IMG/VR virus record: IMGVR_UViG_3300047564_005910
Coordinates: 1 to 64,000 of that record
Origin: a virus
Direction: 5' to 3' (one strand)
DNA: 64,000 nucleotides
Position numbers and translations under genes: made by a program. The notes beneath the pieces were generated by a model, which was given only the letters and a program-made list of their open reading frames with translations, was not told the origin of the DNA and searched no databases. The first letter of the stretch is position 1, and each line of letters begins with the position of its first letter. Positions 1,208 through 7,402 of this stretch are shown in pieces.

Positions 1208-1546
1208 GTGACAGCCTTCGAATATAACGAAGATCTGAAAGAGTGCTGCATATTATTTGGAGCATCCCACGCTGTTACTATATTTTTTAAGAACGGTGTA
1301 CCTATTATGCCTGAACCGTTTTATGAAACGGTTATTTTTATACCATCTGATATAAAACGTACCACTATAGCGGTAATCATTAAAACAATAAAATTCTACC
1401 TCGAAAAATTAGAAAGAAACAAGATGTTTTGTGCTGATATAATAGTGGACTTTAAACGAAAATCCCCAACTATTATTACTTACACAGTTTTTGTAAAAGA
1501 AAAACAGTTTACAAAAAACAAACTAAAATATCTTAACGTCTCTTAA
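1208..1546 (+). CDS. hypothetical protein
   Basis: GTG start preceded by TAAATA; 112 aa. Confidence 0.55.
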   Translation: MTAFEYNEDLKECCILFGASHAVTIFFKNGVPIMPEPFYETVIFIPSDIKRTTIAVIIKTIKFYLEKLERNKMFCADIIVDFKRKSPTIITYTVFVKEKQFTKNKLKYLNVS

Positions 1547-1760
1547 GGTAATTAGCGATACCTATTAGAGTAGGAGCCCATAACCCAACAAATAATGCTA
1601 ATCTTTGATTGTGGGCAGATTCTAAATCTGTGCTACCACCAAATAAAAGCATAATCGTTAAAGAAAAAAATACTGATAGTACACCGAATGTAAAGCATAC
1701 TTTTTCAAGTATATATAAAGAGTTTTTTGGGTCTAATAAAAAACGGATCTTTTGTTTCAT
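1533..1760 (-). CDS. small two-TM membrane protein
   Basis: Two hydrophobic helices; LALFVGLWAPTL; overlaps the stop of the upstream gene. Confidence 0.6.
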   Translation of the reverse strand: MKQKIRFLLDPKNSLYILEKVCFTFGVLSVFFSLTIMLLFGGSTDLESAHNQRLALFVGLWAPTLIGIANYLKRR

Positions 1761-2380
1761 TCTATATAACCGGCCATTATTCCGGCTTCTCGTTTTAAAT
1801 TTTCAAGTTCTTGATTGTTTAATTTTATGATGTCATGTATGGAGTCTAGACACATAATACCTACTATATTGTCTTGTATATCTAACATAGATAAAGCAAG
1901 AAAACTCTTTATACCTCGGGATTCGAAAAACCCTTGTAGAGATGAACTACCTGCATCCCCTGTTACGGTAGTATCTAATATTTGAAACATACCCTTATCT
2001 GCTATCTCTCTAAAAAGAGTAACAAAAAGAGACGTCGGTAAATTTTGAGTGTTGGAACCTTCATTAGATACTCCCTTTTTAGTTGTTTCATAAACAAGAG
2101 AAAATTTTTGTAAACTTTTACCTGTAAAAGTATGTGAACCGTTATGAAAAATTGCAACCCATACTCTATCAACGTTATATTTTTTGCGTATTTTTTCTAA
2201 TCTATCAACTATAATACCTTCTTGGTGTAGCTTTTCAATAATTGTTGGTTCTTTTTTTTCTGGGTATCTTGCTCGGTTTAACAAATATTTCATTAACTGC
2301 AACAAAACCGGCGCCACAACACTTGTTATTACGGCTACCAAAATTAAAGTAAAATGATACGAATCTAAACTATCTGGCAT
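1757..2380 (-). CDS. single-TM protein with GAF-like C-terminal domain (T4 holin T-like architecture)
   Basis: N-terminal TM helix, then RVWVAIFHNG...FSLVYE...GIKSFLALSM...IVGIMCLD GAF-like pattern. Confidence 0.55.
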   Translation of the reverse strand: MPDSLDSYHFTLILVAVITSVVAPVLLQLMKYLLNRARYPEKKEPTIIEKLHQEGIIVDRLEKIRKKYNVDRVWVAIFHNGSHTFTGKSLQKFSLVYETTKKGVSNEGSNTQNLPTSLFVTLFREIADKGMFQILDTTVTGDAGSSSLQGFFESRGIKSFLALSMLDIQDNIVGIMCLDSIHDIIKLNNQELENLKREAGIMAGYIE

Positions 2381-2443
2381 ACCAATATTTATTTAAAGTT
2401 GTTGTTGTCAGTAATATTTAAGCAAAAAGAAGTTATAAAGTGC

Positions 2444-2473
2444 TTGCATTTTTAAATAGTTCAGCTATAAATA
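2444..2473 (+). promoter_or_regulatory. promoter of the tRNA array (TTGCAT-16-TATAAA; also a perfect T4-late TATAAATA)
   Basis: ttgcat 2444-2449, tataaata 2466-2473. Confidence 0.6.
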
Positions 2474-2488
2474 ATAGTACATTCATAA

Positions 2489-2563
2489 ATGAAACATACA
2501 GATACACGTTCAATTGTGGTAAGCCCATGTCTCTTTGGGACCTGGACACCTTACTCTTTTTAA
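2489..2563 (+). CDS. putative leader peptide MKHTDTRSIVVSPCLFGTWTPYSF
   Basis: 24-codon ORF directly after the promoter; its stop overlaps the first arm of alternative hairpins. Confidence 0.55.
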   Translation: MKHTDTRSIVVSPCLFGTWTPYSF

Positions 2564-2626
2564 GCGGGTATTTTAAATTTTTTACTTGATATACCCGCTG
2601 AACTCAATAAAATGAGCAGCGGGTTT
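2563..2626 (+). promoter_or_regulatory. attenuator-like mutually exclusive hairpins
   Basis: A agcgggtat 2563-2571 and C cagcgggt 2617-2624 both complement B atacccgctg 2591-2600. Confidence 0.6.
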
Positions 2627-2725
2627 AAAATTCTAGAGGTTTGTTGGAAGATGTACCTGAAACATCGAAAGAACCACCGTGAATCCGTGGGTGACGTTAG
2701 TCAGAGGTGTAGGTTCATAAAAAAA

Positions 2726-2796
2726 GCGGATGTGATGTAATGGTAGCCTGGAACCTTGCCAAGGTTCTCGCGAGGGTTCGATTCCCTCTATCCGCT
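2726..2796 (+). tRNA. tRNA-Gly(GCC)
   Basis: Cloverleaf; anticodon loop ttgccaa; TTCGA T-loop. Confidence 0.92.
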
Positions 2797-2808
2797 CATT
2801 AATTTCAT

Positions 2809-2888
2809 GCCAGTGTGGCTCAGCGGCGACAGCACCGCTTTTGTAAAGCGGTATACAAACAACGGGGGTTCGAGTCCCTCCACTGGCT
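2809..2888 (+). tRNA. tRNA-Thr(TGT), enlarged variable loop
   Basis: gccagtg/cactggc acceptor; loop tttgtaa. Confidence 0.9.
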
Positions 2889-2897
2889 CTTTTTAAT

Positions 2898-2974
2898 GCA
2901 CCAGAAGCTAAAGTCGTCAAAGCGTCGGTCTGCAAAACCTTCATTAGTCAGTGCGAGTCTGACCTGGTGCTCCA
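2898..2974 (+). tRNA. tRNA-Cys(GCA)
   Basis: gcaccag/ctggtgc acceptor; loop ctgcaaa; U73 plus encoded CCA; atypical T-loop TGCGAGT. Confidence 0.85.
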
Positions 2975-3011
2975 TTTAAACGGACCTGGCTGCAGCAAAT
3001 AAACCAGGTCC

Positions 3012-3196
3012 AGGTAAGATAGTCGTTGCCTGTTAGTGTGTTAGGGCTACTTACTGTTGCTGGACGAGTTAGGCTGCATAAAGCATTGACTCCAAGCATT
3101 TAGATTAACACAGGCTAGACGGATGATTCCGGGCTCCATGCCCGGTCTCGTTGAGGAAGGGACAATTCCTAGGACAAAACCCTTCACATACTACCT
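3012..3196 (+). ncRNA. minimal RNase P-like RNA (candidate)
   Basis: P1 aggta/tacct; P2-like agtcgtt/gatgatt; ctagacggatgatt (CR-IV-like); acaaaacccttcac (CR-V-like) pairing with gtgttaggg (P4-like with bulged U). Confidence 0.5.
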
Positions 3197-3228
3197 TAAC
3201 TTTTTAAAAACTCTTCTTAAATAACAGT

Positions 3229-3438
3229 ATGAACGTTGTTAATATTATATTAACAATAATCGCGCTATTTACAGGCACGGTTATCGGGGTAGCTCTGTTT
3301 AATTTCTTAATAAAATTTTATCTAAAGCACAAAAAAACGAAACTACCATCAGGTATTATTTGTAATAGACGTCATAGAGATCGTCGTTCTTTATTAAGAA
3401 GAAAAGTTGATTTGATTAAACAATTTTTATCGAAATAA
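3229..3438 (+). CDS. small membrane protein with basic tail
   Basis: N-terminal TM helix; TAAATA upstream. Confidence 0.55.
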   Translation: MNVVNIILTIIALFTGTVIGVALFNFLIKFYLKHKKTKLPSGIICNRRHRDRRSLLRRKVDLIKQFLSK

Positions 3439-3444
3439 TATTCA

Positions 3445-3518
<74 letters not shown>

Positions 3519-3527
3519 TACTTTAAT

Positions 3528-3603
3528 GTTGCTCGTGGTGTAACGGTTAGCATTACAGATTGTGATTCTGTTAGAGAGGGTTCGAGTCCCTTCGAGCAAC
3601 CCA
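3528..3603 (+). tRNA. tRNA-His(GTG)
   Basis: 8-bp acceptor with G-1:C73; loop ttgtgat; encoded CCA. Confidence 0.92.
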
Positions 3604-3704
3604 AATTTGGGCTAATCTTATAAATGGAGCCGACATTCCTTACTATTACGTAGGGTTAAGATTATTCCTGGGACGTCGCGGGTAAACCTGTCCCACTTTT
3701 TTTC

Positions 3705-3776
3705 GGGGAATTAGTTAAGTGGCTATAACTCCTGATTTGCATTCAGGTGTCACCGGTTCGACTCCGGTATTCTCCA
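3705..3776 (+). tRNA. tRNA-Ala(TGC)
   Basis: G3:U70 acceptor; loop tttgcat. Confidence 0.92.
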
Positions 3777-3784
3777 TATTTTTA

Positions 3785-3866
3785 GCTCTAGTGGTGAAAT
3801 TGGCAGACACGACAGACTTAGGATCTGTTGCTTTACGGCATGGGGGTTCGAGTCCCTCCTGGAGCA
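3785..3866 (+). tRNA. tRNA-Leu(TAG)
   Basis: Class II variable arm; loop cttagga; A73. Confidence 0.92.
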
Positions 3867-3873
3867 CATTTTA

Positions 3874-3960
3874 GGAAGTGTGGCCGAGCGGTTTAAGGCA
3901 GAAGTTTACTAAACTTCCGAGGTATCCACTCCTCCGTGGGTTCGAATCCCACTGCTTCCG
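3874..3960 (+). tRNA. tRNA-Ser(ACT), A34 anticodon
   Basis: gaagt-ttactaa-acttc anticodon arm; long variable arm; G73. Confidence 0.88.
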
Positions 3961-3976
3961 TTTTACAAAATTTTAT

Positions 3977-4067
3977 GGGCAGATGGCTGAGCTGGTCTAA
4001 GGCGTCCGACTTGAAATCGGAAGTGGTTTTATCGCCACCGTGGGTTCGAATCCTACTCTGCCCGCCA
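3977..4067 (+). tRNA. tRNA-Ser(TGA)
   Basis: Loop cttgaaa; long variable arm; G73 plus CCA. Confidence 0.93.
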
Positions 4068-4086
4068 TTTTAATATAAATACCTTT

Positions 4087-4314
4087 ATGACATTCAAAAC
4101 ATACTTTACAGAGCAATTATCTAAAGGCATGTCTTTAGAGGATATTGCTAAAAAACATAATGTTGACGTAGCTGAACTTCAGAATGAATTAGAAAAAGGT
4201 ACTAAAGTTGAGCACGAACACACTAATTCTGAAGAACATGCTAAAAGAGTAGCTATGGATCATTTAGTTGAAGATCCAAAATACTATACAAAACTTTCAA
4301 AAGCTGGTCTTTAA
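4087..4314 (+). CDS. DUF5661-like small phage protein
   Basis: GTKVEHEHT...VAMDHLVEDPKYYTKL motif; MTFKTYFTE leader. Confidence 0.7.
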   Translation: MTFKTYFTEQLSKGMSLEDIAKKHNVDVAELQNELEKGTKVEHEHTNSEEHAKRVAMDHLVEDPKYYTKLSKAGL

Positions 4315-4315
4315 T

Positions 4316-4388
4316 TGCGGGATAGAATTCCGGTGAGTTCAGGTGTCTCATAAGCATCTCTAGGTGGGTTCGACCCCCACTCCCGCTA
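4316..4388 (+). tRNA. tRNA-Met(CAT), probably initiator-like (1:72 mismatch)
   Basis: Loop ctcataa; U1xU72; lacks the three G-C pairs in the anticodon stem. Confidence 0.8.
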
Positions 4389-4396
4389 CTTTTAAC

Positions 4397-4471
4397 ACGT
4401 TGGTGGCAGACAAGCAATGCAGCAGTCTCCAAAACTGCCTTATGTGGGCGCGATACCCACCCAACGTGCCA
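4397..4471 (+). tRNA. tRNA-Trp(CCA)
   Basis: acgttgg/ccaacgt acceptor; loop ctccaaa; G73 plus CCA; atypical T-loop CGCGATA. Confidence 0.85.
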
Positions 4472-4475
4472 TTTT

Positions 4476-4549
4476 GCGGTGGTAGTATAATAGTAGTACA
4501 GTAGTCTTCCAAACTTCGGGCCTCGGAGCGTAACCGTGTCACCGCACCA
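4476..4549 (+). tRNA. tRNA-Gly(TCC)
   Basis: gcggtgg/tcaccgc acceptor; loop cttccaa; CCA; atypical T-loop AGCGTAA. Confidence 0.8.
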
Positions 4550-4553
4550 TTTT

Positions 4554-4627
4554 GGAGTTGTAGCTCAATCGGTCAGAGCACTGCCCTGTCACGGCAGGGG
4601 TTGCGGGTTCGAGTCCCGTCGACTCCG
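4554..4627 (+). tRNA. tRNA-Asp(GTC)
   Basis: Canonical cloverleaf; loop ctgtcac; G73. Confidence 0.94.
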
Positions 4628-4632
4628 TATTC

Positions 4633-4706
4633 AGAGGTGTAGCTCAACTGGTTAGAGCACCGCTTTGATAAGGCGGGGGTTGTAGGTTCAAGTCCTACCA
4701 TCTCTA
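4633..4706 (+). tRNA. tRNA-Ile(GAT)
   Basis: Canonical cloverleaf; loop ttgataa. Confidence 0.93.
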
Positions 4707-4712
4707 TTTTTT

Positions 4713-4785
4713 GGATCCTTAGTGAAATGGATTATCACTTAACGCTACGGACGTTACATTCTAGGTTCGAATCCTGGAGGATCCA
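4713..4785 (+). tRNA. tRNA-Arg(ACG)
   Basis: ggatcct/aggatcc acceptor; loop ctacgga. Confidence 0.92.
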
Positions 4786-4796
4786 TAAATAATATT

Positions 4797-5201
4797 ATGA
4801 AATGGTGGCCTACTTTATTACTGGCCATTGCTGCTTTTTTCTTTTTTGACACTTATTCATTAAAAGTACCAAAAAAATATGAAATGCTCGATGATGGTTG
4901 TTTAGTACAATCGCTATATTTTCAACAAGTAATACAAGCTAAACAAATGCTTGAGTTTAATATGTGGTCTCGGGTGTTGTGTATACACTTTTACGGTATG
5001 ATAGAGGGTCACGCTGTAACTGCTTTTGTTTATAAAAATATAACATGGGTATACGACCCTAACCGTGGCTCTTTTCCGGTAGCTCATTTCTCTTTATACG
5101 ACCCTTTAATGATTGCTGAATTAGCATTTCCAAAATTATCTATAAAAAAGGCTTATTACATAGAACCTACAATGCTTTTACATTATCAAAAAAATTTTTA
5201 A
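4797..5201 (+). CDS. exported/membrane-anchored transglutaminase/papain-like fold protein
   Basis: Hydrophobic N-terminus; DGC...GHAV...WVYDPN Cys-His-Asp spacing. Confidence 0.45.
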   Translation: MKWWPTLLLAIAAFFFFDTYSLKVPKKYEMLDDGCLVQSLYFQQVIQAKQMLEFNMWSRVLCIHFYGMIEGHAVTAFVYKNITWVYDPNRGSFPVAHFSLYDPLMIAELAFPKLSIKKAYYIEPTMLLHYQKNF

Positions 5202-5249
5202 AAAATACTATTTTTTGTTAAAAAACAACACCTTTGAGAATAAATATAT

Positions 5250-5283
5250 ATGAACGCAAAAACGTTCATGATCTTTAAAAATT
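5250..5283 (+). promoter_or_regulatory. boxB-like hairpin plus boxA-like element after a TAAATA promoter
   Basis: taaata 5241-5246; atgaacg-caaaaa-cgttcat hairpin; tgatctttaaaaat resembles rrn boxA. Confidence 0.35.
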
Positions 5284-5318
5284 AAAAAAGGACGTTTCAG
5301 TGGTGCTCAGGATCGGTG

Positions 5319-5399
5319 AGTTCAGTGCGGCTAGGACGAGGTGCTAGCGACATAAGTAACCACCATGCATTTATTATGGTTCGAATCCATACTGGATTT
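5319..5399 (+). ncRNA. tRNA-like RNA with 11-nt anticodon-position loop
   Basis: Acceptor agttcag/ctggatt; D-like arm gctag/ctagc; ataagt/atttat arm; perfect T-arm tatgg-ttcgaat-ccata. Confidence 0.55.
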
Positions 5400-5475
5400 T
5401 CAGACAAAGAAAAAACAACGGTACCCAGGAGGCACATTTGCATTCCTGGGTACCACTAAAGCGACTTTTTTTTAT

Positions 5476-5504
5476 AACCGCAACAATAGTTGCGGTTTTT
5501 TTTT
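5476..5504 (+). terminator. intrinsic terminator
   Basis: aaccgcaac-aata-gttgcggtt followed by a T run. Confidence 0.85.
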
Positions 5505-5536
5505 GCATTTTTTCCGAGTTCCTTTATACTTTAATA

Positions 5537-5800
5537 ATGATTTTAGCAAAAGAAATAGCAGGTATCATAATGATGCTGTGTTTTATGTTTTGTTACATAC
5601 CACAGATTGTTAAAATCTTTCAGAATAAATCATCAAAGGATGTTTCCTTAGCCTTAATTCTTATGTCTATTGGAGGATATATATCTGGTATGGTTTATAT
5701 GTTTTTAGGTACGTTTGGACTTTGGTGGTTCTTAAATTATTGTGTCGGGCTTATTATGTGCTCGATTCTTGTATACGCCTGGTTTAAGTATAATAAGTAA
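5537..5800 (+). CDS. PQ-loop / SemiSWEET-type 3-TM transporter
   Basis: YIPQIVKIFQNKSSKDVSL PQ-loop motif and three TM helices; start reassigned to ATG 5537, downstream of the terminator. Confidence 0.8.
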   Translation: MILAKEIAGIIMMLCFMFCYIPQIVKIFQNKSSKDVSLALILMSIGGYISGMVYMFLGTFGLWWFLNYCVGLIMCSILVYAWFKYNK

Positions 5801-5801
5801 C

Positions 5802-5876
5802 GCGCGGTTAGCTTAGCGGTAGAGCAGGTCCTTTACACGGACAAGGTCGGGGGTTCAATCCCCTCACCGCGCACCA
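5802..5876 (+). tRNA. tRNA-Val(TAC)
   Basis: gcgcggt/accgcgc acceptor; loop tttacac; CCA. Confidence 0.93.
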
Positions 5877-5881
5877 CTTTT

Positions 5882-6283
5882 ATGAAAAAAGTAATGACAG
5901 TTGATTTCGATGACACTTTAGCCGCTACAATTACTAGTGGTTGGGGAGGTACATCTTTAAAACCTATACCTCGTATTATGAACTTTGTATTCGATAAAGT
6001 TCGTTCTGGGGAATGGGAGGCCCATATCGTTTCCTTTCGTTCTGATAAGGATAAACAAGAGGTAATAGACTTTGTAAAGGGCTACAAATTACCGATTAAA
6101 ACAATAATTTGTACTAACTCTAAGAATAAAACACCGTTCTTAAAGAGTTTAAACTCAAGTCTCCATATAGATGACGATGTTTCAGCATGTACTTTAGCGT
6201 TTATGGCAGGAATTGAGTGTTTATTAGTAGATCACGGCCAAGGAGATACAAATTCTATGGCTAATTTATTCCCGAAAATCTGA
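5882..6283 (+). CDS. HAD-superfamily phosphatase-like protein
   Basis: DFDDT motif I, HIVS motif II, K, HIDDD motif IV. Confidence 0.75.
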   Translation: MKKVMTVDFDDTLAATITSGWGGTSLKPIPRIMNFVFDKVRSGEWEAHIVSFRSDKDKQEVIDFVKGYKLPIKTIICTNSKNKTPFLKSLNSSLHIDDDVSACTLAFMAGIECLLVDHGQGDTNSMANLFPKI

Positions 6284-6291
6284 CTTTCTTC

Positions 6292-6326
6292 TTGCAGTTC
6301 AGTTTGAATTCCGTATAATTGGAGGT
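6292..6326 (+). promoter_or_regulatory. sigma70-type early promoter and SD
   Basis: TTGCAG-16-TATAAT (6292-6319); GGAGGT 6321-6326. Confidence 0.7.
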
Positions 6327-6331
6327 GCAAT

Positions 6332-7402
6332 ATGAATGCAACATTAATCAAAGACTACAACAAAAGGTCAAACATCGTTCGGGAGAGCATTTCGCACTAC
6401 CGAAAAAATCCGGTCCGTCTTTCGCAAATCCGCAAAGATGGAAAAATATTTAAAGTTAACAATGTAGAAGTTACCTCTAAAGCTCTCAACGATCTGTCGA
6501 ATATCTTTTCGATTAAGTCAGCTCTTGTCGATCAAGTTGAAAATGATCGCGAACAATGGCAGCCGCTGCAAAACGCCCTGACCAACATTAAGAAAGATCG
6601 CACCATCACTGCGATCGTTAACGACGGTTCGAACTCTCGGCCGTTTATTACTAAGTTTGTCGATGCACCGATTGAAGAGCAAGAGCCTCTCAGTCTTAAT
6701 AGCGGTCTTGAAAAGATTGGTGGTTACCTTGAGACGGCTGAAGGAGATCTTGAAATTCGAGACTTTTATTTCAATCCTGAAAGCCTGTCTCTTGAGATTA
6801 ATATCCGTAACAAGTCTAATAACATTGACGTATTTGGTGACGGAGACGACATCTGGAACTCCGGCTTCGGTATTCACTATTACGAAAAGAAGACTTCAGT
6901 CGCTCCTTACTACCTCCGCCTGGTCTGTACTAACGGTATGACGGCAGCACATGAAATCTTTCAGCGCTACTTCAGTAATAAGGGTATGAAACAAGAATCG
7001 TTCAACAAACTTGTTAACAATGTTGTTGATCGGGACATCCAACAGATCTGCCGGGCTAATAGCCGTCGGTTGAAGGACGTTAGCGGGTCTCTTCGTGAGT
7101 TCTTTGCTGCTCGCAGTCTGCTAAGCGGTAAAAAGGATCTACAGAAGCGATATTTCGACGATAGCGAAATCCAAGAAGCTTATAAGCCTTACGGCATCCG
7201 TTATCGCAACAAGCGTTGGCTGTCTTCTGCAAATAGTAACGTGAACGGTTACGATCTGTTCAATCATCTGACTCACGCTGCTTCGCATAACCCGACCCTT
7301 CCAATGAACACAAGAACAGCCTTGAACGCTCTAGCATCTGAGATGTTCTTTAAGGGACCGGACCTTGCGTTCCAAGCACCTAACCCGTTCAGTAAGAACT
7401 AA
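6332..7402 (+). CDS. DUF932/DUF945-like protein
   Basis: YLRLVCTNGM signature; C-terminal YDLFNHLTHAASH helix. Confidence 0.7.
   Translation: MNATLIKDYNKRSNIVRESISHYRKNPVRLSQIRKDGKIFKVNNVEVTSKALNDLSNIFSIKSALVDQVENDREQWQPLQNALTNIKKDRTITAIVNDGSNSRPFITKFVDAPIEEQEPLSLNSGLEKIGGYLETAEGDLEIRDFYFNPESLSLEINIRNKSNNIDVFGDGDDIWNSGFGIHYYEKKTSVAPYYLRLVCTNGMTAAHEIFQRYFSNKGMKQESFNKLVNNVVDRDIQQICRANSRRLKDVSGSLREFFAARSLLSGKKDLQKRYFDDSEIQEAYKPYGIRYRNKRWLSSANSNVNGYDLFNHLTHAASHNPTLPMNTRTALNALASEMFFKGPDLAFQAPNPFSKN

Follow-up and report, generated by a model that had tools for sequence, protein, structure and literature searches.

How does a phage that carries its own transfer RNA (tRNA) genes control when they are expressed? 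To our knowledge the regulation of phage tRNA genes is essentially undescribed. The question is raised here by the leader, at positions 2444–2725, of a tRNA gene array in the viral record IMGVR_UViG_3300047564_005910 of IMG/VR; by the window we mean the whole stretch of DNA that was analysed, the first 64 kilobases (kb) of this 112-kb contig (completeness estimate about half, G+C 30–41%). An earlier note on this DNA had read the leader as an attenuator that responds to the tRNA pool, and this interpretation is supported by the comparisons described below: the sequences point to a transcription attenuator of the ribosome-mediated (leader-peptide) type where the phage tRNA operon begins, a reading to which we assign a probability of roughly 0.6, and with such a switch the phage would probably step up tRNA production whenever its ribosomes were short of tRNAs. 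Phage tRNA genes are currently viewed as counter-measures to host tRNA-cleaving defences and to host shut-off (PMC10264068, PMC11464382, PMC11555353).

The promoter-like site, the 24-codon open reading frame (ORF) and the three segments A, B and C lie where the earlier note had placed them and can be read directly from the sequence. From left to right the components of the leader and what it precedes are as follows.

2444–2473, plus strand: promoter-like site P1 (TTGCAT at 2444–2449, a 16-nucleotide spacer, and TATAAA at 2466–2471, extended by TA).
2489–2563, plus strand: leader ORF of 24 codons (ATG at 2489, TAA at 2561–2563), with the predicted peptide MKHTDTRSIVVSPCLFGTWTPYSF.
2563–2571, plus strand: segment A ('2'), AGCGGGTAT, the putative 5′ antiterminator arm, which begins on the final base of the stop codon.
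2591–2600, plus strand: segment B ('3'), ATACCCGCTG, the shared arm, with either A or C as its partner.
2603–2616, plus strand: the inner stem CTCA/TGAG and loop ATAAAA of the B:C hairpin.
2617–2624, plus strand: segment C ('4'), CAGCGGGT, followed by the T-tract TTTAAAAT up to 2632 and forming with B a candidate intrinsic terminator.
About 2630–2720, plus strand: a conserved structured RNA element of about 90 nucleotides, between C and the first tRNA.
2726–5876, plus strand: the array of 16 tRNAs for 14 amino acids, 13 found by ARAGORN and three more by Rfam.

Segments A and B can form nine perfect pairs, and B and C eight pairs plus an AA bulge and four inner pairs, after which comes TTTAAAATT; the two helices exclude each other through their common arm B. 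The B:C hairpin is the dominant one in RNAfold predictions (−17.2 kcal/mol in the window), and the leader as a whole folds better than its shuffles (z = −2.7). The A:B duplex of the window has an energy of −14.6 kcal/mol against a mean of −7.2 for shuffles of the same upstream stretch, of which 300 were made for each such comparison here, and only one of the 300 was as good. When C is barred from pairing the predicted fold of the window leader becomes A:B at a modest cost in energy (−31.7 versus −36.5 kcal/mol).

Relatives of this leader were reached by DNA-pattern scans of viral and metagenome contigs, and the window together with eleven of them (L002, L003, L007, L010, L012, L014, L016, L036, L038, L052 and L054) constitutes group 1. 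Similarity within the group begins at the −35 site, and all members keep TTGCnn, a spacing of 16–17 nucleotides and an A/T-rich −10 region. The ATG ORF is open in all 12, at 23–25 codons and with indels that are multiples of three, and the stop codon (TAA in ten, TAG in L014 and TGA in L036) is at the same position and always abuts A. The peptide itself drifts, the window and L002 differing at 19 of 24 codons with many non-synonymous changes, as is expected for a leader peptide. All 12 retain the A core AGCGGG(T), and B:C is 99% paired among the relatives, with CTCA/TGAG replaced by the compensatory CCCA/TGGG in three sequences and a bulge shift that restores pairing in L012. G-U pairs are tolerated in both the A:B and the B:C helices, and this tolerance together with the compensatory B:C pair suggests that the segments act by pairing as RNA and not as a site in DNA. 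For several relatives the minimum free energy (MFE) fold already contains A:B. Metatranscriptome Logan contigs of two relatives (runs X19 and X20) span the ORF end or A, the B:C hairpin and tRNA-Gly; these contigs show no ends and DNA carry-over is possible, and we draw no conclusion from them.

The same design recurs in three further groups, which came through the anchor used in the metagenome scan and whose leaders are unrelated in sequence. Common to them are an ATG ORF of 29–59 codons, a stop codon within the ribosome footprint of A, and complementarity between A and the 5′ arm of a hairpin that is followed by T5–T7. Group 2 (L011, L013 and copies) has TATAAATA or CATAAATA located 6–7 nucleotides upstream of the ATG of a 36-codon ORF that ends in ...GGTCGATTTTAG or ...GGGTCTATTTTAG; the partner of its final codons is TTGACCTT or TAGACCT, a segment overlapping the 5′ arm of the hairpin GACCTTGGC/GCCAAGGT, and T5–T7 follows. 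The array in this group, 25 tRNA genes by ARAGORN, starts about 450 nucleotides further downstream. Group 3 is from soil (L017, L019, L025 and L061) and has ORFs of 56–59 codons ending in ...GGT(A/G)(A/G)GCAGGTAA; these final codons pair with CCCTGCTTACC, which forms the 5′ arm of a hairpin with T6–T7 behind it. In the remaining group, group 4, represented by L020, TTGACC, 17 nucleotides and TAATAT precede a 29-codon ORF, and GAGCGAC directly after the TAA pairs with GTCGCTC of the hairpin GGGTCGCTC/GAGCGGCCC, which is followed by T7. The short ORF with its stop adjoining A, which the earlier note had suggested looking for in related phages, is therefore kept in the 11 close relatives and found again in three groups of unrelated sequence, and both pairings persist although the sequences that form them have been replaced.

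In each of these three groups the ORF frame has no stops, versus one to four in every other frame (three or four in the other frames of the soil group). The A:B complementarity exceeds the shuffled controls in all four groups: −13.3 kcal/mol in L011 (1 of 300 shuffles as good), −9.5 in L013 (13 of 300), −12.6 in L020 (0 of 300) and −14.4 to −18.8 in group 3 (0–1 of 300). Counted from the final base of the stop, the four groups have A at −1 to +8, 0 to +8, −15 to −5 and −13 to −2, inside the stretch covered by a terminating ribosome in every case; B begins 23–34 nucleotides past the stop, and B:C energies range from −12.7 to −19.4 kcal/mol. The T5–T7 tracts of the three other groups stand directly after the C stem.

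A profile search with the soil group returned 13 more leader peptides, nine of which stop after the same terminal Arg codon and two one codon later; the last two (P0005 and P0008, homologues of the 56-residue leader) read through, their ORF continuing across A, B and C (...TLLTGMEAGFF...), and a switch that has decayed, a constitutive variant or an error of assembly might account for them. No further soil-group leader loci were found in viral contigs, and the sole soil-group array in hand, that of L061, ends at the contig edge. In L011, as oriented here, a direct repeat of about 105 nucleotides with a TATAAT-like site lies about 200 nucleotides upstream of the group 2 leader.

What distinguishes the codons of the leader is their correspondence to the array. 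By strict wobble rules the 16 array tRNAs read 31 codons, which make up 41% of the codons in 26 long ORFs of the window. Against this background the group 1 leaders have 14–19 decodable codons among 22–23 (61–83%), the window leader 15 of 23, with binomial P from 0.047 to <0.001 and P from composition-preserving shuffles from 0.17 to <0.001. The phage's own genes seldom reach such values: among stretches of 23 codons 2.9% reach 15, 0.3% reach 17 and none reaches 19, and among stretches of 16 codons 0.22% reach 13 and none reaches 15. The last four leader codons show no clear enrichment (0 to 4 of 4). In the stall zone, which runs from codon 5 to four codons before the stop and is where a stalled ribosome would leave A free, the tRNA species of the array read about 80% of the codons; the counts are 13 of 16 in the window and in L002, 10 of 16 in L003, 12 of 16 in L014, 15 of 16 in L012, 13 of 15 in L007 and 16 of 17 in L036. 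Enrichment in this zone is seen at the level of amino acids (14–17 of 15–17, versus a background of 67%) and, in five of eight leaders, in the choice among synonymous codons (15 of 15 versus 61.5% in L012). The idea that leader codon content tracks array content thus finds agreement at both levels within group 1, and the peptide is as it had been described, with 16 different amino acids, no run, and 13 of the 14 array amino acids covered, Ala being the exception. One caveat is that leader codons are shaped by RNA-structure constraints as well. The window array's codon set is not over-represented in the leaders of groups 2 and 4 (51% and 43%). ARAGORN, which missed three of 16 tRNAs in the window, reports neither tRNA-Asp nor tRNA-Trp in the arrays of group 2, and the two group 2 leaders have no Asp and one Trp in 70 codons, a match that is suggestive in a test of little power.

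Is the leader ORF likely to be translated? It has no Shine-Dalgarno sequence and its ATG lies about 15 nucleotides past the −10 motif. Most genes of this phage also lack one (almost none has it), and the leader shares its upstream context, the promoter-to-ATG arrangement included, with the phage's real genes, so that the missing Shine-Dalgarno sequence is no argument against translation. The −10 part of P1 can be read as TATAAATA (2466–2473), the T4 late-promoter consensus, which is rarer than chance in the window; four of its six copies sit 5–15 nucleotides before an ATG, one of these being the leader ATG. The near absence of Shine-Dalgarno sequences and the position of this late motif suggest that many messenger RNAs of the phage have very short leaders or none. 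Sites of this kind, ATAAATA among them, occur 5–15 nucleotides before start codons at, for example, 2466, 4074, 18525 (minus strand) and 19752 (minus strand).

Two further structures lie within the ORF.

2500–2510, plus strand: segment Z (candidate '1'), AGATAC.CGTT in codons 4–8, which can pair with A and its 3′ extension (2563–2573).
2518–2555, plus strand: hairpin H1, formed by GGTAAG/CTTACT, CCA/TGG and GTCTC/GGGAC.

A hairpin is present at the H1 position in every close relative, with changes that by eye are compensatory (GGTAAG/CTTACT versus CATGG/CCATG, and TGTTCG/CGGACA versus TGTTCA/TGGACA), and it is possible that H1 acts in pausing or spacing. The Z:A pairing joins an early segment of the ORF to A and its 3′ flank, encloses H1, and appears in the MFE folds of most members. 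Across group 1, 78% of its alignment cells are paired versus 27–52% in slid controls, with one covarying pair; it is significant in some members (L003, L036 and L020) only.

We infer the start of transcription, translation, termination and the direction of regulation as follows. P1 would initiate transcription, and the promoter-proximal AUG at 2489 would be translated without a Shine-Dalgarno sequence, as in most genes of the phage. A ribosome reaching the stop codon would cover A, so that B:C forms and RNA polymerase halts at about 2625–2632, the 'off' state. A ribosome stalled at about codons 5–20 would leave A free to pair with B once B is made, 28 nucleotides later; with A:B formed, C would remain unpaired and transcription would proceed into the conserved RNA element and the tRNA genes, the 'on' state. 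In an RNA that carries no ribosome Z may hold A, and like 1:2 pairing in trp this would make the untranslated state 'off' as well, a proposal weakly supported in the window. Because the codons of the stall zone are read by the array tRNAs, this arrangement would let the supply of these tRNAs feed back on how much of them is transcribed: scarcity of any array-type tRNA, whether the host's or the phage's copy, would raise transcription of the array, and sufficiency would shut it down.

Several observations weigh against this reading. The T-tract of the window is short, with three or four T followed by A-rich sequence, and a terminator scan did not flag B:C because the tract is too short; the earlier note had already entered a reservation about the U-tract after C. 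P1 is not listed by a simple sigma-70 scan, since its −35 hexamer has only three of six matches. The group 1 members are related and not independent samples; one other reading frame is likewise stop-free among them; their A:B core of 6–7 pairs is invariant and therefore carries no covariation by itself; and the two outer A:B pairs of the window are not conserved. The Z:A pairing of the window is not significant, 93 of 500 shuffles being equally good. As to the codons, the limits of the stall zone were set after seeing the data, the codon test in group 2 lacks power because its array covers most codons, and the leader has no run of one regulatory codon; single hungry codons stall ribosomes more weakly than the tandem codons of classical attenuators.

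A more specific proposal is that the leader is a generalist sensor of tRNA depletion. Cleavage or loss of any of about a dozen host tRNA species, for example through anticodon nucleases, PARIS, retron effectors or Schlafen-type tRNases, would stall the ribosome on the matching single codon and call up replacement tRNAs on demand, with the RNA element taking part in the same response, for example through termination resistance of the polymerase across the untranslated array or by directing processing. We put this forward only tentatively, and think it rather less probable than its negation. Plain feedback on tRNA supply fits the observations as well as an anticodon-nuclease trigger does.

A serious variant of the leader-peptide attenuator is one that reports general translation status (ribosome availability, transcription-translation coupling, amino-acid starvation or the timing of host shut-off), with the codon match a by-product; we consider it unlikely. 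The strength of the group 1 enrichment against three nulls (binomial, composition-preserving shuffles and windows of the phage's own genes), its extension to synonymous-codon choice, and its persistence where the middles of the ORFs differ at most codons all speak against a by-product. In its favour are the lack of a single-codon run, the use of at least 12 amino acids in the leaders, and the group 2 leaders, which show no significant codon enrichment; stalling attenuators for general translation inhibition exist, such as mef/msr and the tylosin-responsive yxjB (PMC4335068, PMC6851288).

A less probable explanation, to which we give about one chance in ten in plain terms, dispenses with the switch altogether and rests on a second promoter-like site.

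2586–2613, plus strand: P2, a sigma-70-like site (TTGATA, 16 nucleotides, TAAAAT) inside B and the hairpin loop.

The ORF would then be a mini-gene with B:C as its own terminator, the array would be transcribed from P2, and A would resemble C by chance or duplication. P2 matches the consensus at 10 of 12 positions and is the joint-best sigma-70 match in the 5.5 kb from 1500 to 7000; its −35 TTG and −10 TAAAAT are kept in 11 of the 12 close relatives, and the hairpin loop is invariant. A good sigma-70-like site within the hairpin also counts against an attenuator in its own right. The conserved TTG also lengthens the A:B helix, however, and no evident P2 equivalent is seen by eye in the hairpins of the three other groups, yet these conserve the A/B/C logic; moreover the peptide lacks the conservation expected of a protein, and A:B complementarity is above chance in four groups.

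Somewhat less probable again is a structured non-coding RNA, for example a tRNA-precursor processing or stability element cut by RNase III, E or P, in which the ORF is incidental and B:C is a processing hairpin. The three stop codons used at one position, the in-frame indels and invariant ATG, and the soil-group frame that stays open over 56–59 codons are hard to reconcile with an incidental ORF; the clear T5–T7 tracts of the other groups favour termination, and the codon match would be left without explanation. The leader is nonetheless strongly structured (H1, Z:A and B:C), an AU-rich stretch and the conserved RNA element come after C, and the short T-tract argues against a strong terminator in group 1. 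Finally, that AGCGGGT is the DNA operator of a repressor flanking a promoter is very improbable and was rejected: it occurs in two direct copies and one inverted copy within 62 base pairs (bp) of leader, where B and C bracket the P2 spacer and start, but elsewhere in the 64 kb the motif is no commoner than chance would have it, with four copies, all scattered and distant from the leader (3.5 expected in total), G-U pairs are tolerated, and in the other groups the same pairing scheme is built from unrelated sequences and comes with terminator T-tracts.

In the window the candidate attenuator is followed by the conserved RNA element. Its 5′ part has an AU-rich flank with AAAGG, a stem-loop GATGT/ACATC (2650–2666) with an RCCUGAA-type loop, and CGAAA; the 3′ part has an invariant 19-mer (2674–2692), a hairpin GAC/GTC (2693–2702) and the tail AGAGGTGT (2703–2710), and in the consensus description AGAGGUGU comes after this hairpin. 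All five pairs of the first stem covary, and the second hairpin varies in length with compensatory changes. A covariance model gave 27 hits, 25 of them with E ≤ 6e-5, one per locus, and the element is found in about 25 viral or metagenomic loci from freshwater, marine and soil samples, among them L011, L013, L017, L019, L020, L025, L028, L030, L044 and L061. Wherever the locus is long enough it lies beside or inside a tRNA array (inside it in L028 and L030). A search of IMG/VR for variants of the 19-mer, by a gapped pattern with the stem left free, gave 14 new loci that were all judged to be chance matches by context; with no true variants the stem of the 19-mer carries no covariation evidence. 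Rfam has no match to the element; across 1500–7000 only tRNA reaches the gathering score and there is no match with E ≤ 1 in 2444–2725, and seven related loci likewise gave nothing at E ≤ 0.5. Likenesses noted by eye to helix 45 of 16S ribosomal RNA (rRNA), 5S rRNA, T-loops, and the hepatitis delta virus (HDV), hammerhead and hatchet ribozymes did not hold up when checked against Rfam. Its role might be processive antitermination across an untranslated operon, or it might serve as a processing signal or give rise to a stable small RNA. In the soil group an additional conserved stretch of about 230 nucleotides lies between terminator and element, with a hairpin GACGTC.../...GATGTC and the motif AACGAAAGGCA, and has no Rfam match.

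The array itself encodes, in order, Gly-GCC, Thr-UGU, Cys-GCA, Pro, His, Ala, Leu-UAG, Ser-ACU, Ser-UGA, CAU, Trp, Gly-UCC, Asp, Ile-GAU, Arg-ACG and Val-UAC. The three tRNAs that ARAGORN missed (2898–2971, 4316–4388 and 4476–4546) have, by our own reading, the anticodons GCA (Cys), CAU (Met or Ile2) and UCC (Gly, with a U-U mismatch in the anticodon stem); ARAGORN assigns the unusual anticodon ACU to the tRNA-Ser at 3874–3960. Small protein genes are interspersed among the tRNAs: a 75-residue DUF5661/IF2_N-like product is encoded at 4087–4314, its gene ending 2 nucleotides before a tRNA, a 120-residue PQ-loop membrane protein at 5438–5800, and a 69-residue product with a hydrophobic N-terminal half and a basic tail at 3229–3438. 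Right after tRNA-Cys there is a perfect 8-bp hairpin GGACCTGG/CCAGGTCC without a T-tract (2982–3011), and about 190 non-coding nucleotides follow (3012–3200); Rfam gives no match there at E ≤ 1. A second attenuator within the array was considered here and rejected, the gap at 2975–3445 holding this hairpin and the 69-residue membrane-protein gene, with no leader. The region 5240–5500 is a non-coding unit with a hairpin ATGAACG.../...CGTTCAT, a tRNA-like stretch called by no tool, and a strong terminator (5476–5497) followed by T9.

Upstream of the leader the neighbouring gene varies. An HNH endonuclease gene ends right before the leader promoter in L002, L003, L007, L012 and L016, and in the window a divergent gene takes its place; the array module has possibly acquired its variable neighbours by exchange driven by homing endonucleases. 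The window encodes T4-type replication and baseplate proteins, with a clamp loader no more than 40% identical to those of T4-like phages, and near-identical DNA is present in freshwater and lake metagenomes. Among the cultured phages of INPHARED blastn matched the tRNAs alone and gave no match to the element, and a search through the flanking 207-residue neighbour protein found no relatives.

If the attenuator reading is true, it would provide direct feedback from decoding speed to the transcription of tRNA genes, and a textbook mechanism of amino-acid and synthetase operons would extend to the tRNAs themselves. As viral contigs from freshwater, sea and soil have it in four or more versions that are unrelated in sequence, the design would also serve as an annotation marker for regulated tRNA operons, and the finding flags a widespread RNA element with an invariant 19-mer.

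How does such a switch compare with known systems? With the established amino-acid leaders of enterobacteria (trpL, hisL, leuL, pheL, and the multivalent thrL and ilvGMEDA) the phage leader shares its short ORF, an antiterminator and a candidate terminator hairpin that exclude each other, possibly a 1:2 pairing, and a stop placed so that a terminating ribosome would mask segment 2; the distance from stop to terminator end, about 60–70 nucleotides, is similar to that in trpL. The phage switch differs in that it heads tRNA genes and an RNA element rather than biosynthetic enzymes, in that its leader has no tandem codons and instead a broad set of single codons matching the downstream tRNAs, in that it sits in a phage, and in that its ORF has no Shine-Dalgarno sequence and starts about 15 nucleotides past the −10 motif; in group 1 its U-tract is also short. 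With 16 amino acids in the peptide and tRNAs downstream it falls outside a narrow definition of trp/his-type leaders by tandem codons and a biosynthetic or aminoacyl-tRNA synthetase operon. The pheST operon with its pheM leader is also attenuated at a component of the translation apparatus by charged-tRNA supply; it senses one amino acid through Phe codons, and controls the protein gene of phenylalanyl-tRNA synthetase rather than tRNAs.

In mef/msr(D) and the tylosin-responsive yxjB (PMC4335068, PMC6851288) a leader stall likewise frees an antiterminator and no single amino acid is involved, but the stall depends on a drug and a particular nascent peptide, whereas the phage peptide is not conserved and its codon set appears to be selected. 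T-box riboswitches likewise sense tRNA status and choose between terminator and antiterminator; they do so by direct tRNA binding with no ribosome or ORF, and Rfam finds no T-box at the phage leader. In our full-text literature searches no paper linked leader-peptide or ribosome-mediated attenuation to tRNA genes or phage arrays. The nearest published case that we found is the trn operon of Anabaena sp. PCC 7120 (PMC8421152; its TrcR repressor, PMC10272220), the text of PMC8421152 containing none of 'attenuat', 'leader' or 'terminator'. Like the phage array it is an accessory array, expressed at a low level and induced when translation is impaired; it differs in being controlled by promoter repeats and a repressor, and in residing on a cellular megaplasmid rather than in a phage (PMC8421152, PMC10272220).

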